Shown: in pieces, positions 25,175-39,323 of the stretch | Layout of the letters: each line of letters opens with the position of its first letter | Position numbering within the stretch: position 1 is the first letter of the stretch | Origin: Lachnospiraceae bacterium | Lineage (GTDB): Bacteria; Pseudomonadota; Alphaproteobacteria; RF32; CAG-239 | Direction of reading: 5' to 3' | Assembly: GCA_963594125.1 (NCBI GenBank) | Contig: CAVBCV010000003.1 | Coordinates: 22,797-86,796 of the forward strand | Length of the DNA: 64,000 nt | The notes under the pieces: model-generated | Told to the model about the DNA's origin: nothing | The model's database searches: none | Seen by the model: only the letters and a program-made list of their open reading frames with translations | Position numbers and translations under genes: made by a program

Positions 25175-25294
25175 CGTTAAGCCGCCTTTTGGGGCGGCTT
25201 GGCAAATTAAATCCGGCGGCTGTTTCTGCGCCATTTTATAAAAACTATTGATTTTATGCTCCAAATAAAGTATCATAATAATAAAGGAGGAACA

Positions 25295-25450
25295 ATGGCT
25301 GTTATTGTTTGGTTTGTGCTTTTTTGGACTATGGTGTACATATTTATAGAGTTGTTCAATTCTGTAAAAGAGCAAATCATAGATTATAAAATGCTCAGAA
25401 AGGCTGGCAGAGGTCGCATATACAGCTTTATAAAAGCTATTTTTGGATGA
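25295..25450 (+). CDS. Small single-pass membrane protein (51 aa)
   Basis: AAAGGAGGAACA precedes the ATG. Hydrophobic N-terminus VIVWFVLFWTMVYIFI and a basic C-terminus. Confidence 0.5.
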   Translation: MAVIVWFVLFWTMVYIFIELFNSVKEQIIDYKMLRKAGRGRIYSFIKAIFG

Positions 25451-25509
25451 TATAATTATTCATAAATAAAGAAACTAACAGTAACTGTATGGCATATAGA
25501 TAAATATCA

Positions 25510-25710
25510 ATGGCGGAAATGAAAATATTTTTAAATGGTATAAAAGAGTTTTGTAAACTATGCCTTATTGGCTTTTTCGTATCGCTTATAGTTATCGGGT
25601 TGCCGGGGGCTATAATGTTGTCGTGGGGTGATGAAGAAAATATTGAACGGTGTATGCAAGAGTTTCCGGAGCGAACGTATGATGAATGCGAAAGCGCCGT
25701 TGCTTGGTAG
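25510..25710 (+). CDS. Small single-pass membrane protein (66 aa) with four Cys
   Basis: TM segment CLIGFFVSLIVIGLPGAIML and an acidic Cys-containing tail. Confidence 0.45.
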   Translation: MAEMKIFLNGIKEFCKLCLIGFFVSLIVIGLPGAIMLSWGDEENIERCMQEFPERTYDECESAVAW

Positions 25711-25898
25711 CAGATTTTATGGAGATGGTAACTGTGAAGAAATGGTGTCTAAATTTGTCCGTGAAAATGCCTCGCACGATGAAAATTGTGGACAGAGTGT
25801 TTAATTTTTTGGAATGGCTGACAAAACCAAAGGTAATGGTGTTGTTTTGTTTGCTTTGGCTTGTTATTGCTTATTGTCTTGTTATGGCAGGGTATTAA
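25686..25898 (+). CDS. Small C-terminally anchored membrane protein, start uncertain
   Basis: TM segment VMVLFCLLWLVIAYCLVMAG. Several candidate internal starts. A strong terminator follows. Confidence 0.35.
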   Translation: MRKRRCLVADFMEMVTVKKWCLNLSVKMPRTMKIVDRVFNFLEWLTKPKVMVLFCLLWLVIAYCLVMAGY

Positions 25899-25946
25899 GA
25901 CATCAACACAAACGCCGTTTGGTAGCGGGGTTTAATTTTTTTACGC

Positions 25947-25970
25947 AAGAGGCTTAAAGCCTCTTTTTTT
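25947..25970 (+). terminator. Rho-independent terminator ending the 20790-25898 operon
   Basis: AGAGGC-TTAA-GCCTCT stem-loop followed by T7. Confidence 0.7.
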
Positions 25971-26017
25971 ATGAAAGAACAAATAATAATTTAGTGTACC
26001 CGTATCAGTTTGAAAGT

Positions 26018-26054
26018 GGAAAGGAAAGGGGCGGAAACGTCCCTTTTTATATGA
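26018..26054 (+). repeat. 38-bp repeat / terminator-like hairpin, copy B
   Basis: Same sequence as 20730..20767 minus one T. Confidence 0.8.
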
Positions 26055-26132
26055 ATATATGCGAGCACGCGGCTTGTAAAATTAAGGTTAGTGATTATTA
26101 TAAAACAGAGAGTGATTTTTATGGAGGGGAAA

Positions 26133-26507
26133 ATGGAGTTTTTTATTTGTAATCACTGCGGCAATATTATAACTTTTGTGCACAATTCCGGCGCGCCGGT
26201 TTCATGTTGCGGGGATTTTATGCAAAAAATTACGGAAAATACGGTTGACGCCTCGGCTGAAAAGCATGTGCCGGTTATTAAACAAAAAGGAAACAATGTG
26301 GTGGTTAAAATTGGCAGTATTCCGCATCCGATGGAGCCTAAGCATTATATTATGTGGATTGTATTGGAAACAAAATCAGGCTATCAATTCAAACGTTTAA
26401 GACCAGGCGAGGCGCCGGAAGCTATTTTTGAGCTTTCAGCTGATGATGAAGTTGTAAAAGCTTATGAATATTGCAATATTCACGGGCTTTGGAGCGTCGC
26501 TTTGTAA
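26133..26507 (+). CDS. dfx: Desulfoferrodoxin (2Fe superoxide reductase)
   Basis: 124 aa counted from the ATG after GGAGGGGAAA. N-terminal CNHCGN...CCG rubredoxin-like centre. C-terminal KHVPVI, HPM, H.I.WI and EYCNIHGLW. Confidence 0.9.
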   Translation: MEFFICNHCGNIITFVHNSGAPVSCCGDFMQKITENTVDASAEKHVPVIKQKGNNVVVKIGSIPHPMEPKHYIMWIVLETKSGYQFKRLRPGEAPEAIFELSADDEVVKAYEYCNIHGLWSVAL

Positions 26508-26565
26508 TAAAAAACATACTTAAACTCTCCGTTTTTAACAAAATGAAAAAAAGTTAAAAAATCAG

Positions 26566-26594
26566 TTGACGAGAATGAAAAGATACGTTAAATA
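26566..26594 (+). promoter_or_regulatory. Putative promoter of tRNA-Ser
   Basis: TTGACG, 17-nt spacer, TAAATA. It ends 13 nt before the mature tRNA 5' end. Confidence 0.45.
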
Positions 26595-26607
26595 TAATCG
26601 CAACCAC

Positions 26608-26696
26608 GGAGAGTTGGCAGAGTGGTAATGCAGCGGATTGCTAATCCGTCATCGTGTTAAAGCGATGCACAGGTTCGAGTCCTGTACTCTCCGCCA
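26608..26696 (+). tRNA. tRNA-Ser (anticodon GCU), CCA encoded
   Basis: Acceptor stem GGAGAGT/ACTCTCC. Anticodon loop TTGCTAA. Long variable arm CATCG..CGATG. T-loop GGTTCGAGTCC. 3' GCCA. Confidence 0.95.
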
Positions 26697-26700
26697 TTAA

Positions 26701-26727
26701 AAAGGAAACGCAAGTTTCCTTTTTTTG
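26701..26727 (+). terminator. Rho-independent terminator after tRNA-Ser
   Basis: GGAAAC-GCAA-GTTTCC stem-loop followed by T7. Confidence 0.75.
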
Positions 26728-26742
26728 TTTCCGACATATACC

Positions 26743-26764
26743 GGTTAGTACAGGACGCGAACCT
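26743..26764 (-). repeat. Inverted partial copy of the tRNA-Ser 3' end (T-arm and acceptor)
   Basis: The reverse complement AGGTTCGCGTCCTGTACT matches the tRNA sequence AGGTTCGAGTCCTGTACT at 17 of 18 positions. Confidence 0.6.
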
Positions 26765-26788
26765 ATAATGATAAGGTGAATTTAAAAA

Positions 26789-27049
26789 ATGAACATATTT
26801 GCTGAAATTATCGGCTATATTGCCGGATTATGTATTGCCACTTGTTTTTTGCCGCAGACTTTGCAAACCATTAAAAGTAAAAATGTAAAAGACTTGTCAT
26901 TGATAAGCTATATCATCTATTGCACCGGAATGATTTGTTGGGTGATTTACGGCATATATTTACACTCAGTACAGATGATTCTGTTTAATTTAATTTCGCT
27001 TTATTTTGCCGGTACTATTTTATACATGATTGTTCGGTACAAAAAATAA
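26789..27049 (+). CDS. SemiSWEET / PQ-loop family small transporter
   Basis: 86 aa with three TM helices and an LPQ motif in TM1 (CFLPQTLQTIKSK). Confidence 0.75.
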   Translation: MNIFAEIIGYIAGLCIATCFLPQTLQTIKSKNVKDLSLISYIIYCTGMICWVIYGIYLHSVQMILFNLISLYFAGTILYMIVRYKK

Positions 27050-27093
27050 ACTTTAAAAACAACCGGTTAGTCTGCCATTGGGCGGGCTTGCGA

Positions 27094-27133
27094 CCACCCC
27101 GCCTTCGGCACTCCTCCATAGAGGGTAATTTTT
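27094..27133. repeat. REP-like element, copy 3 (degenerate first hairpin)
   Basis: CCACCCCGCCTTCGGCACTCCTCCATAGAGGGTAATTT. Confidence 0.7.
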
Positions 27134-27145
27134 AATTGCGGATTT

Positions 27146-27243
27146 AAATACAACTTATGCACAGCATGGACTCGTAAATATTGCAAAAAAAAAACGCGAG
27201 CTAAAATCTTCTCAAAATTAACATTTTGAAAGGATTTTAGCTC
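27146..27243 (+). promoter_or_regulatory. Shared promoter/leader element, copy 2, drives the pilin-like gene
   Basis: Homologous to the reverse complement of 5981..6078. TTGCAA (27181-27186), A10 tract (27185-27194), TAAAAT (27202-27207), hairpin arms 27200-27217 / 27224-27241, then ATG at 27244. Confidence 0.6.
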
Positions 27244-28071
27244 ATGTATACATATTTTAACCGCTTTTTACACTACATGCTGTCACACTCCGATGCAGAA
27301 CCGCAGTCCACCCCTATGTTGTCATATTCGGGCTTGACCCGAATATCCAGGTGGGGCAAATTTGCTAATTGGTTTGACCTGGACACTCCGATCAAGTCGG
27401 AGTGTGACAGTATGGGGAAGGACGCATCGCTCAAGCCCGATGGTGACAACATAGAGAATGTTGGTCGGTCTATGGTAGAGATGCTGGGCGTGCTCGCGAT
27501 TATTGGAGTTTTAAGCGTTGGGGCGATAAGCGGTTATAGCAAAGCAATGTTTAAGTATAAGCTTAACCGGCATGCGGAAGCGGTTAATATGCTTATAAAT
27601 AATGTGCTGCAACTCAAAGGGCAGCTGCTAATCGGGCAAAATGAAGAAAAATGTTACGGCACCTTGTTTAAACAAATAAATTTGATACCGGACGGAATAA
27701 ATTATCGCAATAACTGCCAATTAGAAGATAGCTTCTTTAACGGTAATATAAAAATTTATCGTAATACTCAGAAACAGCAAAATTTTGGCGGCTTGTGTTT
27801 TTATTTACCGGTATCATCGCAAGGCGAGGAGATATGCCGTAATATTTTGTTTGCCGCTAAAGAAAATGCTGATAATTTATGGATAGTTGAACTTATAAAA
27901 TATATGTCTGATTCCAGTGTGGAATATTCTGAAAAATCTATTTACGGCAATAATTATTGCAATCAAGGTGACAAATGTTTGTATAACATGACGCTTAATG
28001 ATACGGAAGTTCTTTGTAATGTATGTGACGGAGTGTCATGTGGTTTGTGCGTGTTAATGAGCTATAAATAG
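27244..28071 (+). CDS. Prepilin-type N-terminal cleavage/methylation-domain protein (pilin or pseudopilin-like), start uncertain
   Basis: Class III signal G/RSMVEMLGVLAIIGVLSVGAISG, with Glu at +5, sits at residues 75-97. In-frame alternative starts exist at 27412 and 27472. The first 70 codons are occupied by a palindromic element. Confidence 0.6.
   Translation: MYTYFNRFLHYMLSHSDAEPQSTPMLSYSGLTRISRWGKFANWFDLDTPIKSECDSMGKDASLKPDGDNIENVGRSMVEMLGVLAIIGVLSVGAISGYSKAMFKYKLNRHAEAVNMLINNVLQLKGQLLIGQNEEKCYGTLFKQINLIPDGINYRNNCQLEDSFFNGNIKIYRNTQKQQNFGGLCFYLPVSSQGEEICRNILFAAKENADNLWIVELIKYMSDSSVEYSEKSIYGNNYCNQGDKCLYNMTLNDTEVLCNVCDGVSCGLCVLMSYK
27281..27454. repeat. Nested/interleaved palindromic element inside the 5' end of the pilin-like ORF
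   Basis: A perfect 13-nt inverted repeat (IR): 27281-27293 / 27397-27409. A 24-nt IR matching at 21 of 24: 27314-27337 / 27431-27454. Local hairpins at 27324-27346, 27347-27382 and 27383-27405. Confidence 0.75.
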
Positions 28072-28165
28072 AATAAAAGTTAATGTAACGCATTAAACTA
28101 AAAGGGTGATTAAAAAACACTCTTTTGTCGCATAATGTATATTATGTATACAAAGAGGGCGAAAA

Positions 28166-29746
28166 TTACAATAAAGAGGCTTTTATTAACGTTTTGGCAT
28201 ATTCTGACTGCGGATTTGCAAACACATCGTCCGTAGCGCCTTGCTCAATTATTTTGCCGTCTTTCATCACGGCAACGCTATCCGCAATCGCTCGCACAGC
28301 GCGCATGTCATGCGATATAAATACATAAGCTATGTTATATTTTTGCTGCAACTCACTAAGCAATTTAATAATTTGCGCCTGAATGGTTACGTCAAGCGCT
28401 GAAGTCGGCTCGTCTAAAATTACTAATTTCGGATTGACAATCAGCGCTCTGGCAATGGCTATGCGCTGACGTTGTCCGCCGGAAAATTCATGCGGATATT
28501 TATACAAGTCATTTGCAGTTAAACCGACTTCTGACAACATAGTAATAACTTTTTGCTTAATTTCTGCGTTTTTTAAGCGCGGAAAATGCACTTTTAAGCC
28601 TTCAGCGACAATTTCAAGCACATTTAAACGCGGATTTAATGAATTGTACGGATCCTGAAACACAATTTGCACATTTTTACGGAACTCGCGGCTGTTTATA
28701 TTAAAGCCTGCCAATTCTATTGTTCCGGAAAATTTAATCATATTGGCTAAGCACATGCCCAGCGTGGTTTTGCCGGAGCCGCTCTCGCCGACCAAGCCTA
28801 AAGTTTGCCCTTGATAGAGCTTCAGCGACACATTATTTACGGCAAACAGACGTTTGGTAACCCTGCCCCAAAAGCTTTTTTCCAGAGGATAACTGACCGT
28901 TATGTTACGGGCACTTAGGACATCTTCGCTAAATATTTTTTTGTTTGTTTTCAATAGTGAATAAGCTTGTATTAATTTTTTAGTATAACTATCTTGCGGG
29001 TGTAAAAATATACTTTCAGCCTCTCCGCTTTCAACAATCTTGCCGTTTTTCATCACAATTATTTTATCGGCAATTTTGCGCACCAAGCGTAAATCATGAC
29101 TAATAAACAGCACTGACATATTAAATTTGTTTTTTAAGTTGAGCAGCAAATTAATGATTTGCTCTTGAATTGTAACGTCTAGCGCGGTTGTCGGTTCATC
29201 GGCGATTAAAATTTGCGGATTGTTGGCAATTGCCATAGCTATCATCACGCGCTGACGCTGCCCGCCGGAAAGCTCATGCGGATAAGCGTTGAATCTTGCC
29301 GCCGGATTTTTAATGCCAGCTAATTTTAAGAGCCTTACAGTTTGTCTTTTGGCTTGTTTTAACGTAATTTTTTGGTGCATAAGCAGATTTTCAGCCACTT
29401 GATGACCAATTTTGTGCAGCGGATTTAATGATGACATCGGCTCTTGAAAAATAAAACCGATTTGCCCGCCGCGAATTTGCCGTAAATCTTTTTCAGGCGC
29501 GCCAATCAGTTCCTTTCCGTGCAATTTTATGGAAGAATTGTCCGAAAGTTTGGCTTTGCCGCGCGGCAATAAGCCTAAAACAGACAATGCGGTTACTGAT
29601 TTACCGGAGCCGCTCTCGCCGACGATGCCCAACACCTCGCCTTTTTTAAGACTAAATGAAATATCATCAACGGCGGCAAACGGAGCGGCGTTGTCACGAT
29701 TAAAACCGACCGATAAATTTTTAACTTCAAGCACTTGTTCGGTCAT
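28166..29746 (-). CDS. yejF: ABC transporter ATP-binding protein with two fused ATPase domains (YejF-like)
   Basis: 526 aa. Two Walker A motifs (GESGSGKS, GESGSGKT), two LSGGQRQR signatures, and oligopeptide-type C-terminal extensions. Confidence 0.85.
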   Translation of the reverse strand: MTEQVLEVKNLSVGFNRDNAAPFAAVDDISFSLKKGEVLGIVGESGSGKSVTALSVLGLLPRGKAKLSDNSSIKLHGKELIGAPEKDLRQIRGGQIGFIFQEPMSSLNPLHKIGHQVAENLLMHQKITLKQAKRQTVRLLKLAGIKNPAARFNAYPHELSGGQRQRVMIAMAIANNPQILIADEPTTALDVTIQEQIINLLLNLKNKFNMSVLFISHDLRLVRKIADKIIVMKNGKIVESGEAESIFLHPQDSYTKKLIQAYSLLKTNKKIFSEDVLSARNITVSYPLEKSFWGRVTKRLFAVNNVSLKLYQGQTLGLVGESGSGKTTLGMCLANMIKFSGTIELAGFNINSREFRKNVQIVFQDPYNSLNPRLNVLEIVAEGLKVHFPRLKNAEIKQKVITMLSEVGLTANDLYKYPHEFSGGQRQRIAIARALIVNPKLVILDEPTSALDVTIQAQIIKLLSELQQKYNIAYVFISHDMRAVRAIADSVAVMKDGKIIEQGATDDVFANPQSEYAKTLIKASLL

Positions 29747-30759
29747 TGGGTTTTCCTTGTGTCAAAAGCATCGCGCACGCCCTCGCCGATAAAAATCAGC
29801 AAAGTCAACAATCCGGATAGCACAATAAAAATGGTAATGCCAATCCACGGAGCTTGCAGGTTGTCTTTACCTTGCCGGACTAAATCGCCCAATGACGGAT
29901 AATCGCCCGATAGTCCTAACCCCAAAAAGTCAAGCGAGGTTAGCGCCACAATGGCTTCCGATAAAATAAACGGAATAAATGTTACACTGGTGACTAAAGC
30001 ATTGGGCAATATGTGTCTGAAAATAATACGAAAATTACCAACTCCCAATGCTTTGGCCGCAGCCACATATTCAAAATTACGGGTGCGCAAAAACTCAGCG
30101 CGCACCATAGAAGTTAAAGAAGTCCATGAAAACAACATTAAAATCAGCAAGATTGTCCAAAATGTAGGTAAAAATACGCTGGCAACAATGATTAAAATAA
30201 AAAGCTGCGGCAAAGATTCCCAAATTTCAATAAAACGTTGCAAAATCAAATCGGTTTTGCCGCCGAAATAGCCCTGAACAGCGCCGATAGTAATGCCGAT
30301 AACTGAAGAAAATAAGGTGAGCAAAAAGGCAAACAGCACGGATAATCTGATTCCGTATAAAATGCGGGCGGCAATATCCCTGCCCTCATCATCAGTGCCT
30401 AAAAGGTGGTGCTTATCAGGCGCTGACGGAACCGGAGTGTTGATTTCATAGTCAACGGTGTTGTATGAAAAAGGTATCGGCGGCATTATCATCCAACCGT
30501 TATTTTTGATATTTTCCGCAATATATTTATCCTGATAATCGGCAGGCGTCGGGAAATCGCCGCCAAAAAATTCATCGGTATAGGTTGTAAGTATCGGAAA
30601 ATAAAAATGCCCTTTATACTTTAGCAATAACGGCTTATCGTTGGCAATCAGCTCGGAAAACAACGACACGGCAAAAATCAAAATAAACAATACGGCTGAA
30701 ATTTTAGCCCGTTTATTTTGCTTAAAAGCGGTAAATCGTTGTTTCCAAACCGGACTCAT
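29743..30759 (-). CDS. yejE: ABC transporter permease, YejE-like (microcin C/peptide importer family)
   Basis: 338 aa, colinear with E. coli YejE. Contains ELIANDKPLL, LGTD..GRD, VRAEFLRTRNF.Y..AA.ALG and QAPW.GIT. Confidence 0.85.
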   Translation of the reverse strand: MSPVWKQRFTAFKQNKRAKISAVLFILIFAVSLFSELIANDKPLLLKYKGHFYFPILTTYTDEFFGGDFPTPADYQDKYIAENIKNNGWMIMPPIPFSYNTVDYEINTPVPSAPDKHHLLGTDDEGRDIAARILYGIRLSVLFAFLLTLFSSVIGITIGAVQGYFGGKTDLILQRFIEIWESLPQLFILIIVASVFLPTFWTILLILMLFSWTSLTSMVRAEFLRTRNFEYVAAAKALGVGNFRIIFRHILPNALVTSVTFIPFILSEAIVALTSLDFLGLGLSGDYPSLGDLVRQGKDNLQAPWIGITIFIVLSGLLTLLIFIGEGVRDAFDTRKTQ

Positions 30760-32786
30760 TCGTTATTTGTCTCTTTCAGCAATAACTCATTTTTCAATTC
30801 AGGCGTATCGTTATCTTGCGGATTGGACGCATTTTCAGATTGCGATTTGTCTTTGGTGACAATATCAGGTTTGACATCATCGTTGATTTTGTTAATGTAG
30901 CACCATTTCGCATACCATTTTTCAAAACCAGGAATCGCCTGATTTGCCTGCTCTTGCGTTATATCAAGTAATTGCAGCTTGCGTTGCAGTTCATCTTTTA
31001 AGCTTTGGTGAATATTAATTGATTCTAAGCCTTTGCAGATGCCGTCATGATAAATGTACTGGCGCAAAATGTCTTGCGTGCGGCATACGCTGTTATCTAA
31101 GGTCAACTGCTTGTTATTAGGCGATTTAATGGCAAGCATTGACATTTTATCATACAAAAAGCTATTGATAAAATCATCATACGGAATATTGCGGAAATCA
31201 TCAACGCTGGACATGCCGTTGATAACAATAACCGACTTATTTAACAAACCGGCGTTGTCAAGTTTGTTGATAAATTCTTGCATTTTGCCGAACAAACATT
31301 GGGTTTGGTCTAAATAACCGTTGCGTTTGGCCATGCTGTTATCGGTTTTTATCCATGGCATATTTTCCATATTAACCCACTGCTCGCGCGGTTTAATATT
31401 GCAAAATTCGTCATATACAAACATATCGGACGGAATATCGGCATAAACAAAATAAGCCTGCGCGCCTTTATCATTAATTACATCTTCGGCTAAAATATCA
31501 AAGGTTTTAACAGAATTGATAACATACAGGTTGTTATAATTTATACCGACCATCGGCATGGTTTCAGGCTGCCCGATAATGCGCAAAGCCTGATAAATAC
31601 CGGACATATCCTTGAAGATTTTCATGCTTGAAATCCACTCAATCAAGAGCACCTGCGAGCGCTCAATGGAGCTCATGCTTGAGCTGTATAAGTTAACCGG
31701 ACGATTTAATTTTTCCATACATCTGTCAACGTTAAACACGTGATTTTTATGGCATAAATCAAACCCGCGCGATTTATAGGCGGATATTTTATATCCGGCT
31801 TTGCGGAAAGTATCAAACATCTGGTTATCTTTTAAGAAAATATATTCATCATTTACATTAAAAAACTTCCAGTATTTGTATATCATCATGGTATCTAAAA
31901 TATGCTTGGACGCGGCATCATCGCTAAACAAATTTACTGCCAACACCATGTTAATGAACGAATTATTTTCTTCATTATAAGAGTTTGAAAATACACTGAA
32001 TTTATTTTTAGCGTAAAAGCCGTTTATCAATTTGGTAACATTTTGAGCTTTGGCATCGTTAATACTGTAAAAATACTTAGTGGCTGCCAAGTTGGGCAGC
32101 ATAAAATAAATAAACTTTTTATCATCATCGGAAGAATAATCTTTAAGTTGCGATTGATAAAGCTCAATAAAATCATGCTGATTGCGCATGTTGTTAACTT
32201 CATGGCGCAAAATTCCGGCAAACGCTACCACAAACAGCAACACATATATCGCCAAAATTATGACATGGGCGCGCCAAAAGAGCCATAATACCAACAATGA
32301 GAGCAAGACCGAAACCACAACATAAGAGCCGACATACAAAAATTGCGGTGTGGACGAGCCTAAAAAATTCTGCACATATTCGCCCAAAAAGGTTTGCGTA
32401 TCAAATTGCGCGAACTGGTTAAACAGCACGATTGAAAACCAACAAGTTACCAATGCGCAGATAATATTCTGTACCCATGATGAAAAAGAGGTGATAATCA
32501 TCAAGACTGTTGACAGAGCAAGCATAAAGGTCATCAGACCAACCAGCTCCGCCGCCAAAACAAAATTGGCGCCGAAAATATTCAGATTGCCGGAATCGGT
32601 GAACAAAACCAAGTCAATCGCCATTAACAAAAAGATATACAAGGCTTTTAACAAAGTGCTGAGTATTAAAATCGGGATTTTATGTTTTTGTGGATTTTTA
32701 TGACCGCGGAAAAATTTTTCACTTTCAAAAGTCAGCGGTGAGCGAAAATGACGTGTATACATTTTTATTAATCCTGTTATTGTCAA
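30756..32786 (-). CDS. Polytopic membrane protein with a large C-terminal alkaline-phosphatase/sulfatase-like domain, possibly catalytically degenerate
   Basis: About 6 N-terminal TM helices. The C-terminus has a sulfatase-like layout (FIYFMLPNL early, YLDQTQCLFGKMQEFINKLDNAGLLNKSVIVINGMS late), but I do not see the usual GDH(G)-type residues. 4-nt overlap with yejE. Confidence 0.5.
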   Translation of the reverse strand: MTITGLIKMYTRHFRSPLTFESEKFFRGHKNPQKHKIPILILSTLLKALYIFLLMAIDLVLFTDSGNLNIFGANFVLAAELVGLMTFMLALSTVLMIITSFSSWVQNIICALVTCWFSIVLFNQFAQFDTQTFLGEYVQNFLGSSTPQFLYVGSYVVVSVLLSLLVLWLFWRAHVIILAIYVLLFVVAFAGILRHEVNNMRNQHDFIELYQSQLKDYSSDDDKKFIYFMLPNLAATKYFYSINDAKAQNVTKLINGFYAKNKFSVFSNSYNEENNSFINMVLAVNLFSDDAASKHILDTMMIYKYWKFFNVNDEYIFLKDNQMFDTFRKAGYKISAYKSRGFDLCHKNHVFNVDRCMEKLNRPVNLYSSSMSSIERSQVLLIEWISSMKIFKDMSGIYQALRIIGQPETMPMVGINYNNLYVINSVKTFDILAEDVINDKGAQAYFVYADIPSDMFVYDEFCNIKPREQWVNMENMPWIKTDNSMAKRNGYLDQTQCLFGKMQEFINKLDNAGLLNKSVIVINGMSSVDDFRNIPYDDFINSFLYDKMSMLAIKSPNNKQLTLDNSVCRTQDILRQYIYHDGICKGLESINIHQSLKDELQRKLQLLDITQEQANQAIPGFEKWYAKWCYINKINDDVKPDIVTKDKSQSENASNPQDNDTPELKNELLLKETNNE

Positions 32787-32852
32787 TAGTTGCTTTATTA
32801 TTTACACATACGCCGGCAATAACAAGTTTTTATACATACCTATCCACAATAA

Positions 32853-32889
32853 TAAAAAAAGCGGAGAAATAAATCCCCGCTTTTTTTTG
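32853..32889 (-). terminator. Rho-independent terminator of rpsD
   Basis: On the minus strand, a GCGGGG...CTCCGC stem followed by U7. Confidence 0.7.
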
Positions 32890-32905
32890 TAGTAATATTT
32901 CCGGA

Positions 32906-33520
32906 CTATCTGGAGTAAAACTCAATAACCAGATTCGGTTCCATAAGAGCCGCATACGGAATATCATCAAATTTCGGTACAAAAGTATATTTTGCCGACA
33001 ATTTTTTGTTGTCAACTTCCAAATAAGACGGAGCTTCACGACCCTGTGATTCAACAGAAGCTACAACCAAAGCCATAGATTTTGATTTTTCTCTGACTTC
33101 AATAACATCGCCAACTTTAACCATGTAAGAAGGAATGTTTACTTTTTTGCCGTTTACGGTTACATGACCGTGATTTACAAACTGACGAGCAGCAAATACG
33201 GTCGGAACAAATTTAGCTTTGTATACCAAGTTGTCCAAACGTGATTCAAGCAAACCAACCAAGTTTTCAGCAGCGTCACCTGTACGACGAATAGCTTCGG
33301 CGTAATATTTGTGGAACTGTTTTTCTGAAATGTTACCATAGTAGGTTTTCAATTTTTGTTTTGCATATAATTGCTCGCCGTAGTCAGTGGTCTTTTTTCT
33401 TCTTTGACCATGTTGACCAGGAGCATAGCTGCGTTTGTTAATCGGGCTGTTGGCATCACCCCAAAGGTTTACGCCATAGCGACGGCTGGGTTTTTTCTTT
33501 GCAGAAACGATACTTTTCAT
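32906..33520 (-). CDS. rpsD: 30S ribosomal protein S4
   Basis: 204 aa. Contains [24 protein letters not shown], and an S4 RNA-binding domain. Confidence 0.97.
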
Positions 33521-33680
33521 AAAATTAAATCCTTATATTGTTATTAGGTTATTGTCCCGATAGTTTTAAACATGAATTTAAAACGGGATACATGTATCCG
33601 CTTTCTCGGAAGTGAGTGTAAAATAATACAAAATAATCAAATATGCAAGCAAAAAATTTGCCATAATATCAATTAGTAAC

Positions 33681-34778
33681 CTATAAGCTAAGATTAAGAC
33701 CGAAAGATATAACCGCCGCCGGTGAATTTTTATCTTCAAAGCCGCGTTTTAAGTATAATTGCGCGTCGGAAAGCACTGATAAATTGTTGTTTATGCTGTA
33801 ATTATAATATGTTTCAATTATGTGCTCGCAGCGGTTATAAACCTTTGTATCAGTTGCTTTTTTATTTATTTTATTGATAGAGTACGCCACTCCTAAGCTG
33901 TCATTTTGCGAACGATTAAACGGGTTGTTATAAAGCAAGCCTGCCGTATATGAATGGTCAGCAATATTATTGCCGGTTGAGCCGTTTAACCTAAAAAACA
34001 GACTATGTTTATCGCTGATGTCTTGCGCTAAATACAATGACCATCCCTGCCCCGAGTATGCTGATTTTTTAACATTAGGTTTGTTATACAGCAACAAGCT
34101 GTATGAACCTTGGTAACGGCTGTAAATTTTAGGAACATAATTTACGGACGCAAAATATGAGTTTTTAGCAAAATGATTAAAACGTATTCCGTCCGCCGTC
34201 GGATTAGAGGCATCAATAAGCCCCAAACTCAAAACCATATTCGGGTTTAAGTAAGCTTGCGTATAAGCCCCAATACCCGCAGTCGGGTAAATAAAGGTGG
34301 TGTTTTGTGATGTCGCGGAGTTTAAAAAGTAATAACGCTGCAAATCACTTGCAATCGGGCTGTCAAATTTTGCAATCGGAATTTGTCCGATGGCGACAGT
34401 TATGTTGTTGTATTCGTTTGGTAAATTGTATGAAAGATACAGCTCATATAACTCATTATAATCAGTATCATAACTGTTAAATAAAGTGGCAATTTTTTGC
34501 CGCGCAGCCGCTTCTGCCGGTTTGGTGTGTGGAAATCTTACAATATTCATTGAAAAATTAAAATCCGTTTTGCCATATTTATTGTCTGAAAGGTTTTTAT
34601 TTAAATAAGGCGTAATCAACAGCTGCGATATGTTTTGCGATTTTACATTTTGGAAGCGATAAATGCCGTCTACTCCAAAATTAACATTGTATTGCTCTTC
34701 AATATCTTGTTTGTTTAATGCTTGGGTCTGAGCCGCGCACAGCAAAAGCATTATGGCCAAAAGTAATTTTCGGGTCAT
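33681..34778 (-). CDS. Outer-membrane beta-barrel porin, OprB (carbohydrate-selective porin)-like
   Basis: Signal peptide ending AQTQA. Alternating beta-strand pattern. The C-terminal EHIIETYYNYSINNNLSVLSDAQLY...ISFGLNLSL resembles the OprB family end. Confidence 0.6.
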   Translation of the reverse strand: MTRKLLLAIMLLLCAAQTQALNKQDIEEQYNVNFGVDGIYRFQNVKSQNISQLLITPYLNKNLSDNKYGKTDFNFSMNIVRFPHTKPAEAAARQKIATLFNSYDTDYNELYELYLSYNLPNEYNNITVAIGQIPIAKFDSPIASDLQRYYFLNSATSQNTTFIYPTAGIGAYTQAYLNPNMVLSLGLIDASNPTADGIRFNHFAKNSYFASVNYVPKIYSRYQGSYSLLLYNKPNVKKSAYSGQGWSLYLAQDISDKHSLFFRLNGSTGNNIADHSYTAGLLYNNPFNRSQNDSLGVAYSINKINKKATDTKVYNRCEHIIETYYNYSINNNLSVLSDAQLYLKRGFEDKNSPAAVISFGLNLSL

Positions 34779-34810
34779 TTTGTGGTCCTTATTAAAAATG
34801 TTGCGTTATA

Positions 34811-35632
34811 TCAGATAGCTAACTTGTTTAAATGATAATCAACCAGTTCTCCGCCGTAACAAACAACGTTGGAAATTCCGTAAGATAGTTTTTTGATATA
34901 AAATGTGACCGGAACGCCTTTATAATTCCATTCTATACGGTCAAAAAACTCGGTATCCTGCCGGATAACTTCCGCATGCTTGCTCATGGCTTCTATAACT
35001 GCCGCGGCATCATCTTTGGTTAAGGCATTATCACTAATCCAGCGTGAATACGGATTGTCTGTTTTGCCGTTCAAAGTATTTAAATTTAAGGTTTTAAGAC
35101 TGATGGTTTTAATGTTGGGATAGGTATCAATATATTGCTTGATTTCCGCCAAATAATCCGCAAAGCTTTTGTCTTTTAACATTACGTAATTAAGCCGTAT
35201 ATTTGCTTTTGCAAACAGCGGCGAGTTGATGTAATCTTGATTATATCCTAAAATTTTCATATCTTTGTTGCTGTCAAAATCAACTCTGGTAATTTCAATG
35301 ATAAAGTCATTTTTAATCAGCTCCAGCTTATCCGGCTCAAAGAATATGTTACCGGACGATTGAAAGCGTTTTTCATCAAAAATATTGACTTTGCGGGTTG
35401 CCTCAACTACTTTACGGATAGTTTCATAACTGTGTAATGAAGGCTCTCCGTTGCCGCAAAATATAAAATAACGGAAATTGATGTTTTTTGACTTTAAGTA
35501 ATTAAATTTAGCTTCCAGTTCGTCAACTTTATCATCAACCGGCGGCCATTTGGTTATTTTTGCGGTGCAATACGGGCAATTTTTGTTGCATCTAAAAGAT
35601 GACAAAATCAGTTCAAATTCTTTGTATTTCAT
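34811..35632 (-). CDS. Small radical-SAM enzyme of unassigned subfamily
   Basis: 273 aa. Contains CNKNCPYC (CxxxCxxC) at residues 15-22 and FCGNGEPS. A GGAGG SD sequence lies inside the upstream gene, and the ATG follows the upstream TAA directly. Confidence 0.8.
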   Translation of the reverse strand: MKYKEFELILSSFRCNKNCPYCTAKITKWPPVDDKVDELEAKFNYLKSKNINFRYFIFCGNGEPSLHSYETIRKVVEATRKVNIFDEKRFQSSGNIFFEPDKLELIKNDFIIEITRVDFDSNKDMKILGYNQDYINSPLFAKANIRLNYVMLKDKSFADYLAEIKQYIDTYPNIKTISLKTLNLNTLNGKTDNPYSRWISDNALTKDDAAAVIEAMSKHAEVIRQDTEFFDRIEWNYKGVPVTFYIKKLSYGISNVVCYGGELVDYHLNKLAI

Positions 35633-36145
35633 TTAAAGTACCTCCTCTAAGGTTTTGCTGATTAAATTTACAATTTCAGAATAATCTTTGTATTTACGCA
35701 CCACTAAGTTTTTGCTACGTTTAAGCGCGTCGGCAATGGCAAACCAATATTCTGATTTAATGGTATAAGCAGAATCTTCTTCTTGATAGAGCAGAATAAT
35801 CTGCTTGCCGGCATTTAGCGCCCAACCAAGTTCCACAATAGAGCCGACGGAAAAACTTTCGCCCAAAACCGCCGCAAAAATATCGCTGCTTAAAATAAAG
35901 TTATATTCAGCGTTAAGCACTTCATTGCAATCGGTTGAAGTAAAATTGCCGCCGGAAGCCTGCTCGCAATAAAACGGTCCCGCATATTCAAATTTGCCGC
36001 CGACAACCAAATTACGCTGATAATAGGTCAATAATTTAGAATCTTGCAAAAGTTTGGCGCGATAGTCTTCACTTAAAGCAGCGGATAAAGGCAATCCCTT
36101 TTGCTTGCTTTTATTAAATTTTCCGGCAAAATATACTTTTTTCAT
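35633..36145 (-). CDS. Nucleoside 2-deoxyribosyltransferase-like (NDT/DNPH1 fold) protein
   Basis: N-terminal KKVYFAGKF and late FSVGSIVELGWALNAGKQIILLY, typical of the NDT-like fold. The start at 36145 forms an ATGA overlap with the pnuC stop. Confidence 0.65.
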   Translation of the reverse strand: MKKVYFAGKFNKSKQKGLPLSAALSEDYRAKLLQDSKLLTYYQRNLVVGGKFEYAGPFYCEQASGGNFTSTDCNEVLNAEYNFILSSDIFAAVLGESFSVGSIVELGWALNAGKQIILLYQEEDSAYTIKSEYWFAIADALKRSKNLVVRKYKDYSEIVNLISKTLEEVL

Positions 36146-36699
36146 TTTACATTTCCTTTCATGAGTCTTAACCAATTAAAAAACGAGATTATCGCCATTA
36201 CCGTCCACACAATGTTTAAGCCCATTAAATAATAAGCCTGAGCCGGAAGCATGGCGTATTGCACTGTGTAGCAAAGGTCATTAACAAACCAGATAACCCA
36301 CGTATCCAGCTTTTTTCTGACCATATAATAAGTGGCGACAAATGAAGATACGGTGCTGAACGCGTCAATATGCGGCAGCGGGTCCGAAGTTTGTTTTAAA
36401 AACGCAAACAACACACCTGAGCTGACGGCGATTACTAAAACGTATATTAACCGCTCGGTTGATGAGCATTGCGTTATGGCGGTTTGTTTGTTGCTTTTCC
36501 ACAAAATCCACCCTGCGATACCCATAAACAGATATATGGTGTTGCTTAAAACATCGCCGTATAAATGGTTAAGATATGAAAAACAAATTAAACAGCCGAT
36601 TTGCGCAATATAAAACAACCAATTGCAACGCTTGTTTAAGAGCACAAAAAGCCCTTGCAACAATCCTAAGACTGTTGCGCATATTTCTAAAATTTGCAT
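36142..36699 (-). CDS. pnuC: PnuC-family nucleoside-type transporter (nicotinamide riboside transporter-like)
   Basis: 185 aa, about 7 TM helices. Conserved Trp/Asn pattern (NKRCNWLFY, GIAGWILW, WVIWFVNDL). Confidence 0.8.
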   Translation of the reverse strand: MQILEICATVLGLLQGLFVLLNKRCNWLFYIAQIGCLICFSYLNHLYGDVLSNTIYLFMGIAGWILWKSNKQTAITQCSSTERLIYVLVIAVSSGVLFAFLKQTSDPLPHIDAFSTVSSFVATYYMVRKKLDTWVIWFVNDLCYTVQYAMLPAQAYYLMGLNIVWTVMAIISFFNWLRLMKGNVK

Positions 36700-36707
36700 A
36701 GCGCCAC

Positions 36708-36764
36708 CTACCTTTGCATGATAAGCGGTGAAATGTAATGAAGTTTTTGACTGAATTTAGTCAT
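36708..36764 (-). other. 18-codon upstream ORF with strong SD in the pnuC leader (speculative leader peptide)
   Basis: AAGGAGA, 7 nt, then ATG ACT AAA ... TAG. It ends 8 nt before the pnuC ATG and encodes MTKFSQKLHYISPLIMQR. Confidence 0.25.
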
Positions 36765-36850
36765 AGATTTTCTCCTTGACAGCAGGTTAATTTATGGTTT
36801 GTCTCGCCTGTCCCTTCAAGACCCAAACCAACAAAAATCAAAGTTTGAAA

Positions 36851-37390
36851 TTATTCATCTTCATAAAAACTTTTTTGGATAAGCTCCAAATTTTCAGGAT
36901 GAACAAATTGTTTGTATCGGCTATCTTTGAGCGCAATCATATCACGCACCATATTTCCGGATAAAAACGGAAAATCTTGCGTGGTACGCGAGCAAACGCC
37001 AACATTCGGAACATCATTGGCAAAAAAGCGGTATTCGCTTTCATCGCCAACGTAAATAATATCCGGTTTGGGTTTGTCAGGCTCTTCTTTTTTTATGGTA
37101 TCCAAAACGTGTACATTCCACGGAATATTATTGACGTCTTTAACGCCGATAATCTTCAAACGTGAATAGGCTTCATTTTTGCGCCACACATTTTGTATCA
37201 TTTTTTTGCGAACAAAATAAGGCAGAGGATTTTTCTCGGTTCCGCTTTCTTGCGCGGCGGCAATCAAAACGGTTCCCCAAGCGCACTCTTCCATCATTTT
37301 TGTAATCAGTCTGTTATGCCCGATATGAAAAGGCTGACAGCGAATAATGCAAAAACCATGTTGATATTTAAACATAAAAAAACCTTTCAT
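36851..37390 (-). CDS. nadM: Nicotinamide-nucleotide adenylyltransferase, archaeal/NadM type
   Basis: 179 aa. Contains RCQPFHIGH (the GRxQPFHxGH nucleotidyltransferase motif), AAAQES....NPLPY and a late SGNMVRDM block. Confidence 0.75.
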   Translation of the reverse strand: MKGFFMFKYQHGFCIIRCQPFHIGHNRLITKMMEECAWGTVLIAAAQESGTEKNPLPYFVRKKMIQNVWRKNEAYSRLKIIGVKDVNNIPWNVHVLDTIKKEEPDKPKPDIIYVGDESEYRFFANDVPNVGVCSRTTQDFPFLSGNMVRDMIALKDSRYKQFVHPENLELIQKSFYEDE

Positions 37391-37601
37391 ACTGAAAGGC
37401 CACTCATCAAATGGGTATACTCCCCGCTTATATATTGATGACCGGCCAAGTCGTTAAAGTTCGTGCCTATTGCCCTCAAGCACCCGAACATAGGTAGAAT
37501 ATTATACCTAAAATCGCTTGTCAACAATTTTTTATTTGCGGCAATAAAAATAAAACTGGAAATTAAAAAAAATAAACGTAAAATAAAGGGCGGAGAGCAA
37601 A

Positions 37602-39323
37602 ATGTCATACGATTTATTGTTTGAAAAAGCTAATAATTTATATTTAACCGGCGCGCTTAATCAGGCGGAAGATTTATATCGGCAAATTTTAGAGGTTGTG
37701 CCCGAAAACCCTGATGTTTTAAATATGATGGGTTTGACTGCCCATGCCAAAGGCTGTTTTAGCGAGGCGTGCGAATATTTTTACAAGGCATTGCGGTTTG
37801 CTCCCCGTCATCTGCCGCTTTATTTTAACTTAGCGGTTTCATTAACGGCGGCGGAAAAATTACATGAGGCGGCAAACGCATATTTTGAAGTTATAAAATT
37901 AGATGCTAATATCAAAGAGGCTTATAATAATTTAGGCGGAATTTATGAAAGCTTAAATCAGCCGGAAAAAGCTAAAGAATATTACCGCAAGGCGCTTGAG
38001 CATGACCCCGCTTATTTGGAGCCATCGGTTAATTTGGCGGCGCTTGACCATGATGTTGCGGCGTTGCAAAGCCTCTGCGAGCAACACCCTGCATCTGCCC
38101 TGCCCGTATATTATTTGGCACTCATTAATTTTAAACAAAATAACCTTGCAGAGGCTGAGCAATATATAAAACTTGCGCAAAATCGGGATACCTCTTCTGC
38201 TGATATATATTTGCTTGCCGGAAATATTGCGTTAAAAATCAATAATACCGATGAGGCGGTCAAAGATTTTGCACAAGCCTTGCAAATTAACGGCAAATGC
38301 ATTCCGGCGCTGATTAATCTTGCCGCATTGACCGAAGATGAAAGCTTATACCGCAAAGCGCTTGATTTAGAACCGAACAATGCGGAAGCTCATGCCGGAT
38401 TGGCGGCTCTATTGTATAAACAAAAGCGCACCTTGGAAGCCTTGGAAGAGTACCGCCAGGCAGTTATTTTGAATCCGGATATGCCGGAAGTAAGCAATAA
38501 TTTAGCCTTAATTTTGAAAGATAGCGGCGATTATGAGCGCGCTGCCGATTTATTGCTGAACGCCATTAAACAAGCGCCGCAACAGACTGAATTTTCTATC
38601 AATTTAGCTGAAACGCTTACGCTTTTTTATGCTCAAAACCCGCAAGAGGCGTGCAAAATTGCCGAACAATGGCAAAAATTTGCCCCTGATAACGTATTTG
38701 CCAACCGCTTAGTTGCAGCATTTAACGGCAAAAACAGCACTGACGGCAAAGCATACACAGAAGCTTTGTTTGATGCATTTGCTGAAAATTATGAGCAGAC
38801 AATGCAAAATATTAATTACTCCGCCATTGCTAAATTAAAAGAATTGAACTTTGCGCCTATTGGCAAAGTGCTTGATTTAGGGTGCGGTACCGGATTAGTC
38901 GGGCAAGCATTTAAATCAACTAAAAACAGCTTTATCGGGGTTGACATCTCGCAAAAAATGTTAAATTTGGCGGCGAGCAAAGGTGTGTATGCTGATTTAA
39001 TTAAAGATGATATTGTTAATTTTTTAAGCTGCAATAAGCTGAGCTTTGACTTGTGTATTGCGCTTGATGTGGTTGAATATATTGATGATTTTGCCAAAGT
39101 GACAACTCTTATTAAAAACAAACCGTTTATTTTTACGATTGAAAATGCTCCTGATGAAGTGAGCAGCTATCAGCTTAATGCCAGCGGCAGATACCAACAC
39201 AATCCGCAATATATCCGCAAGCAGCTTACCGCCGCCGGATATAAAAATATTAAAGAACATCCTTTAATCTTGCGGCAGGAAAACGGCGCGGACGTAAACG
39301 GCACGCTGTTTTGGGCGGAATAA
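37602..39323 (+). CDS. TPR-repeat protein fused to a class I SAM-dependent methyltransferase
   Basis: 573 aa with many 34-aa TPR units (AYNNLGGIYE..). C-terminal VLDLGCGTGLVG motif I. Confidence 0.85.
   Translation: MSYDLLFEKANNLYLTGALNQAEDLYRQILEVVPENPDVLNMMGLTAHAKGCFSEACEYFYKALRFAPRHLPLYFNLAVSLTAAEKLHEAANAYFEVIKLDANIKEAYNNLGGIYESLNQPEKAKEYYRKALEHDPAYLEPSVNLAALDHDVAALQSLCEQHPASALPVYYLALINFKQNNLAEAEQYIKLAQNRDTSSADIYLLAGNIALKINNTDEAVKDFAQALQINGKCIPALINLAALTEDESLYRKALDLEPNNAEAHAGLAALLYKQKRTLEALEEYRQAVILNPDMPEVSNNLALILKDSGDYERAADLLLNAIKQAPQQTEFSINLAETLTLFYAQNPQEACKIAEQWQKFAPDNVFANRLVAAFNGKNSTDGKAYTEALFDAFAENYEQTMQNINYSAIAKLKELNFAPIGKVLDLGCGTGLVGQAFKSTKNSFIGVDISQKMLNLAASKGVYADLIKDDIVNFLSCNKLSFDLCIALDVVEYIDDFAKVTTLIKNKPFIFTIENAPDEVSSYQLNASGRYQHNPQYIRKQLTAAGYKNIKEHPLILRQENGADVNGTLFWAE

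Follow-up and report, generated by a model that had tools for sequence, protein, structure and literature searches.

Which compound is handled by an operon that joins a PnuC-type transporter to a relative of the nucleoside 2-deoxyribosyltransferases (NDT) and to a radical S-adenosylmethionine (SAM) protein? The question is raised by five neighbouring minus-strand genes in a 64,000 nucleotide (nt) stretch of contig CAVBCV010000003.1, referred to here as the window. In the direction of transcription these are a NadM-like gene (36851–37390, 179 amino acids (aa)), an accessory neighbour separated from pnuC by 151 nt; pnuC itself (36142–36699, 185 aa with a core of seven transmembrane segments), the putative uptake step of the module; the NDT-like gene (35633–36145, 170 aa counted from the ATG); the radical-SAM gene (34811–35632, 273 aa); and the gene for an OprB-family porin (33681–34778, 365 aa including a signal peptide), a putative lineage-specific entry step in the outer membrane. 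We found that pnuC and the two enzyme genes form a cassette that stays together in gut bacteria of several groups and on a phage contig. In support of the import-and-remodel role first proposed for the operon, the cassette probably serves the salvage or remodelling of a nucleoside-type nutrient through chemistry so far undescribed, and the specific explanation that we favour, giving it about an even chance of being correct, is a horizontally mobile module which captures and processes a nucleoside by means of a PnuC channel, an NDT-like N-glycosidase and a member of a new radical-SAM enzyme family.

The initial annotation had described the four genes from pnuC to the porin as tightly coupled, and this was confirmed from the sequence. 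The pnuC and NDT-like genes overlap in an ATGA (36145–36142), the TAA of the NDT-like gene directly abuts the ATG of the radical-SAM gene, and a spacer of 32 nt separates the TGA of the latter from the porin ATG. The Shine-Dalgarno sequence ascribed to the radical-SAM gene was found as GAGGAGG, 8 nt before its ATG, and a consensus scan gave no terminator-like site in any cassette junction, which agrees with the hairpin-free spacer reported between the radical-SAM and porin genes. The ATG, rather than an upstream TTG, was taken as the start of the NDT-like gene because its homologues uniformly begin with MKK(I/V)YFAGKF and are about 170 aa long.

Conservation of the neighbourhood was surveyed in 79 loci, with one genome per species, which were compared by tblastn and clustering of open reading frames (ORFs). 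Of the 49 loci where radical-SAM identity was 60% or more and the flanks were long enough, 48 had PnuC and NDT-like genes flanking the radical-SAM gene, the single exception being a gene fragment. At 38–60% radical-SAM identity the trio was together in 10 of 11 loci; nine of the ten belong to a clade at 40–42% identity in which the gene order is PnuC, radical-SAM, NDT-like. Over all informative loci, pnuC adjoined both enzyme genes in 58 of 60. The adjacency thus extends far beyond this genome, and what had been proposed as a four-gene unit is conserved as three genes. Only 15 loci, which with few exceptions carry an Alphaproteobacteria label, have a porin gene after the radical-SAM gene, and no porin gene accompanies the Gram-positive and phage versions among the compared loci. 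A small lipoprotein gene precedes pnuC in four other Gram-negative loci, in place of the porin. Full-text searches of the literature yielded no paper linking PnuC with a radical-SAM or NDT-like enzyme, in keeping with the earlier statement that no described system of this architecture is known.

The linkage between the three genes also takes more intimate forms. In several loci of the 40–42% clade both enzymes are encoded in one ORF of approximately 450 aa, and independent fusions of the NDT-like and radical-SAM proteins were detected in both orders (P0122, P0124, P0131 and P0134; also L059 7977–9347). The trio alone, with a radical-SAM protein of 39% identity, is located among phage genes on a 416-kb IMG/VR contig (IMGVR_UViG_3300011005_001194; L084 7424–9337); GenBank phages gave no tblastn match, and PHROGs contained no family for either enzyme. 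By their labels, the hosts are uncultured Alphaproteobacteria, Bacilli, Clostridia and Tenericutes/Mycoplasmatota of the gut. Radical-SAM identity between alphaproteobacterial and Firmicutes-type contigs is 66–71%, a 67%-identical homologue of the window protein being found in Gram-positive-type contigs, which suggests that the unit has been transferred laterally. Three loci (L013, L035 and L064) probably owe their 'Gastranaerophil*' and 'Muribaculaceae' labels to binning errors, since they share synteny and 78–87% identity with loci of Alphaproteobacteria or Tenericutes. As the linkage outlasts changes of gene order, inter-phylum transfer, gene fusion and carriage by a phage, we consider the trio a functional unit.

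For the protein of about 170 aa the initial annotation had predicted an NDT/DNPH1 fold, and the AlphaFold2 model (predicted local distance difference test score (pLDDT) of 88, built on 18 homologues) bears this out. A Foldseek search with the model ranked BcmB, MilB, DNPH1 and BlsM, with their Rossmann-like fold, above NDT (E = 3e-6 to 1e-3), and the catalytic Glu is kept. The same CMP/dNMP N-glycosidases provide the best sequence matches, at identities of only 18–22%, with E-values against PDB sequences of 7e-8 for BcmB (4jen) and 2e-5 for MilB, compared with 4e-3 for NDT, and the protein remains below the Pfam gathering scores of both Nuc_deoxyrib_tr (PF05014; 23.3 bits against 28.8) and PF15891 (14.8 bits against 30). 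Judged by these comparisons, the protein, for whose own family 280 matches were obtained, stands as a divergent branch within the N-(deoxy)ribosyltransferase-like superfamily. The motif FSVG(S/T)(I/V)VEL.WA is invariant among the homologues; its Glu105, unchanged in the 18 homologues and in all fusion proteins examined, lines up with VEIGWA in BcmB and MilB. Common to both groups are the catalytic motif G-x-x-x-E-(I/L)-G-(W/Y)-A and a preceding F-x-S-x-D substrate loop. The NDT-like protein differs from the CMP/dNMP N-glycosidases in having its own invariant, flexible loop, GPFYCE.AS.G..TSTDC, part of which corresponds in the alignment to the BcmB and MilB substrate loop. A redox-active cysteine pair in this loop was considered and rejected, with Cys60 replaced by Asn in the divergent fused clade and only Cys73 universal. 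The partners differ as well, being hydroxymethylases or methyltransferases for the known N-glycosidases, and a transporter and a radical-SAM enzyme here.

BcmB, MilB, DNPH1 and BlsM are hydrolases of nucleoside 5'-monophosphates (NMP or dNMP N-glycosidases), and in both sequence and predicted structure the NDT-like protein appears to resemble these more than the true nucleoside deoxyribosyltransferases. As its nearest relatives act on 5'-monophosphates, a phosphorylated substrate is suggested for this protein too. The earlier label 'deoxyribosyltransferase-like', similar to the 'nucleoside 2-deoxyribosyltransferase' of public annotations, holds for the superfamily fold, but apparently not for the closest relationship within it.

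The radical-SAM protein, publicly annotated as a '4Fe-4S cluster-binding domain-containing protein', contains the CNKNCPYC and GNGEPS motifs and scores just above the gathering score of PF04055 (30.5 against 29.5 bits). The CX3CX2C motif at residues 15–22 (C15-x3-C19-x2-C22) and G60-N-G-E-P are invariant in its homologues, 113 of the 273 positions are invariant in a sample of 16 sequences, and there are no conserved C-terminal cysteines for a second, auxiliary cluster. No NCBIfam family exceeded 20 bits, no PDB sequence was matched by either the single sequence or the family profile, and 106 clusters (at 50% identity) matched the profile among 1.84 billion representatives; 264 homologues were recovered, the best 120 of them all at least 66% identical. 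On this profile evidence the protein is a member of a small, sharply bounded new family and falls in none of the characterised families that the models and structures cover; such a placement had been named initially as a possible refutation, together with an adjacency confined to this genome. The AlphaFold2 model (pLDDT 85) contains a predicted partial TIM barrel that matches radical-SAM structures, with MoaA as best Foldseek hit (E = 2.6e-8, template modelling (TM) score 0.59) and viperin-like enzymes at TM scores of 0.55–0.58. Both MoaA and viperin bind nucleoside triphosphates (NTPs) and start radical chemistry on the ribose of the NTP.

The likeness to MoaA is one of fold only, since no MoaA model was among the NCBIfam matches, and the second cluster of MoaA is missing. 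With viperin the protein shares a single N-terminal CX3CX2C cluster and the existence of kinase-associated relatives, whereas the N-x-H substrate motif of viperin is missing; outside the cluster loop neither MoaA nor viperin/pVip matches in sequence, and the beta-rich C-terminal domain differs. Identity as viperin or its prokaryotic relative pVip was rejected: the scores were 20 bits against viperin model NF038283 (cut-off 180, residues 14–81 only) and 18 bits against the PADLOC pVip model (N-terminal cluster loop only), while a true pVip encoded in L066 reached 127–131 bits. Membership of a known defence system was likewise rejected, as PADLOC gave only these sub-significant pVip matches and no other PADLOC model was matched.

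Two sets of distant relatives occur outside the cassette. In nine loci of Bacilli (L066 4961–10100, L067, L069, L071, L072, L074 and L076–L078) the radical-SAM family has a distant branch whose members are fused to cytidylate kinase; in most of these loci a LysR regulator, a CYTH protein and a genuine pVip (PADLOC 131 bits) are encoded beside the fusion, metallo-beta-lactamase-fold and CYTH-like proteins come after the fusion in all nine, and the arrangement looks like a separate nucleotide-modifying cluster. A locus of Candidatus Uhrbacteria (L057 3688–5530) has a tandem pair of radical-SAM genes (38% and 36% identity) without a PnuC or NDT-like neighbour, and downstream on the opposite strand a Maf-like nucleotide pyrophosphatase, recognised by sequence inspection only.

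Profile searches upheld the identities given earlier to PnuC, the radical-SAM protein and the OprB porin. PnuC matches Pfam NMN_transporter (PF04973, E = 3.7e-37), exceeds the cut-off of the equivalog model TIGR01528 (62.7 against 42.45 bits) and matches the PnuC structure 4QTN (E = 1.6e-8). Its TWVIWFVND sequence corresponds to the WxxW(x)3D/N ligand motif of transmembrane segment 6 defined for Pnu transporters, in which the final position is D in PnuT and N in Neisseria mucosa PnuC (PMC5749112); since the window PnuC ends the motif in D, as PnuT does, the motif does not settle the substrate. Pnu transporters function by facilitated diffusion with metabolic trapping by a co-encoded enzyme, and their genes co-localise with those of kinases (PMC5749112). 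The porin scores 63.3 bits against OprB (PF04966, gathering score 22.9) and has the N-terminus MTRKLLLAIMLLLCAAQTQA, as expected of a signal peptide; its similarity to AaxA (E = 1.6e-44) stays far under the cut-off of the AaxA model.

The NadM-like protein aligns over its full length to the archaeal-type nicotinamide mononucleotide (NMN) adenylyltransferase models PRK01153 and TIGR01527 (E ~1e-12), has a QPFHIGH (HxGH) motif and is placed by PHROGs in the cytidyltransferase and NMN adenylyltransferase families, and is probably an NMN adenylyltransferase. In 25 loci, almost every one with an Alphaproteobacteria label, a homologous gene is located on the pnuC strand, 0.3–2.4 kb upstream. Most of the Alphaproteobacteria have the order NadM-like, CofE-like, DUF5662, PnuC, NDT-like, radical-SAM and sometimes porin, with gaps of at most 93 nt. 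The CofE-like protein (PF01996, E = 3e-50; 397 aa, F420-0:gamma-glutamyl ligase family) is encoded between the NadM-like gene and pnuC in L006 (5205–6928) and 19 other loci, these 20 being nearly all labelled Alphaproteobacteria, and is followed in most by the DUF5662 gene, which accompanies the cassette in other clades too, at times fused to a DHH phosphoesterase. Both genes are absent throughout the 64-kb window and missing also in its closest relatives. The initial annotation had stressed that nadM lies immediately next to the operon; the gene is indeed upstream, but direct adjacency is particular to the window and is best seen as a local remnant of a longer operon, because related genomes have CofE-like and DUF5662 genes in between and the closest relative, L005, has no NadM-like gene at the locus.

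Other versions of the cassette carry additional genes. Firmicutes versions encode a 298-aa orphan protein, p298, all members of whose family are annotated 'hypothetical', and whose C-terminal half has a Tmk-like P-loop (IIEGTDGVGKTT) and a weak match to thymidylate kinase models. A CYTH/TTM identity for its N-terminal half was rejected, with hhalign to a Pfam-confirmed CYTH neighbour family giving <1% probability and no support for CYTH/TTM from a PDB profile search, Pfam or NCBIfam. The Firmicutes versions also include a further protein related to a 288-aa neighbour of a second clade (hhalign 98%), and Ham1/RdgB, above the TIGR00042 cut-off; in all, Ham1/RdgB is part of the cassette at 17 loci. 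The second clade has a LysR regulator, DHH/NrnA-like phosphoesterases and metallophosphoesterases. In four loci (L002, L003, L028 and L030) purA precedes pnuC, and CinA/PncC and NAMPT genes adjoin the cassette in L001–L004. A tblastn search with six of the accessory genes from other versions found no homologue elsewhere in the window.

An NrtR-like regulator (PF21906, E = 1e-14) is encoded in about 16 loci from two phyla, Firmicutes versions among them, and NrtR operators are known as 21-bp palindromes with a GT-N7-AC core (PMC2330246). We found a 21-bp palindrome of this type, TTATGGT-N7-ACCATAA, with 0–3 mismatches in the promoter regions of ten of the loci that encode the regulator (L023, L025, L027, L038, L040, L042, L048, L050, L052 and L053). 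Pairs are located at -78 and -37 of pnuC in L023 (6853–6914), L025 (620–681) and L052 (592–653), with a similar layout in L027 (668–729), L038 and L050, while a single copy with 0–2 mismatches lies upstream of the lipoprotein-pnuC operon in L040, L042 (6576–6596), L048 (109–129) and L053 (6562–6582). Further NrtR-type predicted operators are present in L028 (5205–5266).

An RNA element upstream of pnuC had been considered at 36700–36850, where no Rfam family matched. Rfam at gathering scores returned only tRNAs from the window and 19 related loci, and a permissive scan of 36600–37650 gave only chance-level matches, thus providing no indication of a riboswitch. The pnuC leader (36700–36770, minus strand) is conserved only with L005 and contains a 9-bp minimum-free-energy hairpin (CCGCUUAUC/GGUAGGUGG, z-score approximately -3), in which the Shine-Dalgarno sequence of pnuC is base-paired; L005 differs by two substitutions that leave the pairing intact. 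An 18-codon upstream ORF (36764–36708), preceded in the window by a strong Shine-Dalgarno sequence, was rejected as coding because this sequence is not conserved in L005, and the segment is more likely part of the structured leader.

Starting from the gene identities, folds, conserved linkage, fusions, phage copy and NrtR-type predicted operators that we observed, we infer a transport direction, an order of steps, a substrate and a product as follows. An OprB-type porin would admit a ribosylated solute through the outer membrane, and PnuC would move it over the inner membrane by facilitated diffusion. Inside the cell the solute would be captured by phosphorylation or direct conversion; the P-loop kinase fusion p298 could serve for this in the Gram-positive versions, and a host kinase or the two enzymes themselves may do so here. 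The radical-SAM enzyme, with one [4Fe-4S] cluster and a MoaA/viperin-like core, might then use a 5'-deoxyadenosyl radical to attack the nucleotide at its sugar or base, and the NDT-like enzyme may cleave or exchange the N-glycosidic bond of the 5'-phosphorylated form with the conserved Glu as nucleophile, so that a base or sugar phosphate becomes available to the cell. Both enzymes may act together as a physically coupled pair or complex. That the direction would be uptake is argued for by the outer-membrane parts, porin and small lipoprotein, which are found only in Gram-negative versions.

As to the substrate, we lean towards a pyridine riboside related to nicotinamide riboside, which would feed the synthesis of nicotinamide adenine dinucleotide (NAD) via the NadM-like adenylyltransferase. 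This preference derives from four independent features of the context, namely the equivalog score of PnuC, the NadM-like gene, the NrtR-type regulon and the PncC/NAMPT neighbours in L001–L004; phages, moreover, use PnuC for NAD rebuilding (PMC13464706). Several points weigh against this substrate or against capture as such. In the window the cassette has no kinase, no NrtR gene and no operator, and the NadM-like protein, missing from the L005 locus, scores only 46 bits, under the equivalog cut-offs of 127 and 181. To our knowledge no NAD pathway requires a radical-SAM enzyme or an NMP glycosidase, and hydrolysis of NMN would be wasteful. Ham1/RdgB, purA and the loop like that of CMP glycosidases fit a purine or cytidine substrate equally well, and the L028 palindrome pairs precede purA, just upstream of pnuC, and a gene of no assigned function. 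NrtR-family regulators also govern pathways unrelated to NAD (PMC2330246), and PnuC, being a uniporter, could also transport outward.

Among the alternatives, the idea that the genes are chance neighbours or share transcription only has a negligible probability: operon packing in a compact genome could explain the adjacency in the window taken alone, but not a linkage that survives when the order is permuted, when the genes pass from one phylum to another, when two of them fuse and when a phage carries them. General salvage of purine or pyrimidine nucleosides, where de novo nucleotide synthesis is poor, would have PnuC importing a common or damaged nucleoside, the kinase and Ham1 managing the phosphorylated forms, the NDT-like enzyme exchanging or releasing bases and the radical-SAM enzyme repairing or converting a modified nucleotide. 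We consider this unlikely. It would account for Ham1/RdgB, for purA before pnuC and, in L028, behind NrtR-type predicted operators, for the weak match of the kinase P-loop IIEGTDGVGKTT to thymidylate kinase models, for the DHH, metallophosphoesterase and DUF5662 accessory genes and for the substrate loop; ordinary nucleoside salvage requires no radical chemistry, however, and the accessory genes vary by clade, with none in the cassette of the window itself. Salvage of queuosine or other 7-deazapurines, as a non-orthologous counterpart of the route in Clostridioides difficile, has the same three-part logic of transporter, N-glycosidase and radical-SAM enzyme (PMC12632869, PMC11570991). PnuC would here import queuosine, the NDT-like enzyme would free the base from queuosine or its 5'-phosphate, and a QueL-like radical-SAM enzyme would yield preQ1 for tRNA-guanine transglycosylase (TGT), a product that in the phage could feed DNA modification. 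The hosts are all small-genome gut organisms, which are often queuosine auxotrophs (PMC6593275), MoaA, the nearest fold, binds a guanine nucleotide, and Ham1 acts on non-canonical purine NTPs. We nevertheless rate this explanation as decidedly unlikely, since neither the window nor the 19 loci contain a preQ1 riboswitch, which the C. difficile operon has (PMC11477304), the cassette regulators are NrtR-like or LysR, the transporter and hydrolase families are unlike QueT and QueK, tgt and queA are not recurrent in the cassette flanks, and a survey of transporters for queuosine salvage does not mention PnuC.

The cassette might instead export, as a producer of a modified nucleotide or nucleoside with viperin-like antiviral or antimicrobial activity, for which PnuC and the Gram-negative porin would be the exit and the NDT-like enzyme would either tailor the product or shield its producer. 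PnuC, a facilitator, could run outward (PMC5749112), the radical-SAM fold is near viperin and its distant members are fused to a viperin-associated kinase beside true pVip, CYTH and metallo-beta-lactamase genes, and BcmB, MilB and BlsM all serve nucleoside-antibiotic synthesis. This is improbable in view of the pVip scores of the window protein, 18–20 bits in the cluster-binding N-terminus only, with no other PADLOC model matched, of surroundings that are not like a defence island, of metabolite-type repressor control and of very high conservation in genome-reduced commensals, and no Pnu-family exporter is known. Finally, the two enzymes may be a minimal route to deoxyribonucleotides that is free of ribonucleotide reductase, in which the MoaA/viperin-like enzyme would begin to remove oxygen from the ribose of an imported phosphorylated nucleoside and its partner would pass deoxyribosyl 5-phosphate to other bases. 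Both the route and this division of labour are very improbable. The idea fits loosely with nearest folds that act on the ribose of NTPs and with a partner from the dNMP/NMP glycosyl-transfer superfamily, and equally loosely with the Tmk-like kinase, the dITP/XTP pyrophosphatase Ham1 and the lone phage trio; if true, it would constitute a portable dNMP supply for small-genome anaerobes and a giant phage.

Around the cassette, the G+C content of positions 24000–38000 is 0.37–0.39, compared with 0.43 for the window overall, and that of the cassette genes is 0.36–0.40. Up to approximately 26000–28200 most genes are on the plus strand and beyond it nearly all are on the minus strand, and the cumulative GC skew has its maximum there; genes converge here, as a replication terminus would predict, and a tRNA is located at 26608–26693. 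A 676-aa protein encoded at 30756–32786 on the minus strand, which seems to combine several membrane-spanning segments in the N-terminal third with a large soluble portion, matched nothing in Pfam or NCBIfam. On the other side, divergent from the NadM-like gene, a plus-strand gene at 37602–39323 encodes a 573-aa protein of tetratricopeptide repeats fused to a class I SAM methyltransferase domain, and this gene stays beside pnuC in L005.

The high conservation of the cassette, and its movement between gut lineages and into a giant phage, suggest a metabolite that is important for life in the gut. It would extend radical-SAM chemistry by a new reaction on a nucleoside or nucleotide, give the NDT/DNPH1 fold another role, and provide Pnu transporters with either a further substrate or a further way of having it trapped. 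If the link with NAD is true, the cassette would represent a branch of microbiome vitamin B3 salvage that has so far gone undescribed, possibly with a function in phage counter-defence.

In its type, the system is probably a transporter-plus-trapping-enzyme salvage of a nucleoside or vitamin, built around a new radical-SAM family, and two known pathways are among its closest counterparts. The queuosine salvage of C. difficile (QueT/QrtT, QueK, QueL), likewise from a gut bacterium, follows the same plan: a transporter, an N-glycosidase acting on the nucleoside, and a radical-SAM enzyme by which the freed moiety is remodelled. Its transporter is of the energy-coupling factor type and its hydrolase of the IunH type, in contrast to the Pnu-type transporter and NDT-like fold here, its control is by a preQ1-I riboswitch rather than by protein regulators, and QueL (YP_001088187.1) was compared by description only. 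The other is the salvage of nicotinamide riboside by PnuC and NadR (bacterial salvage III; NARP3 in phages). The cassette differs from it in having no NadR, in containing a radical-SAM enzyme and an NMP-type N-glycosidase that are unneeded for the conversion of nicotinamide riboside to NAD, and in its kinase, which where present is another P-loop protein fused to an unassigned N-terminal domain. What the two have in common is a PnuC-family facilitator beside substrate-capturing enzymes, control by NrtR in some taxa and a phage-borne version, together with the adenylyltransferase gene that neighbours the cassette here.

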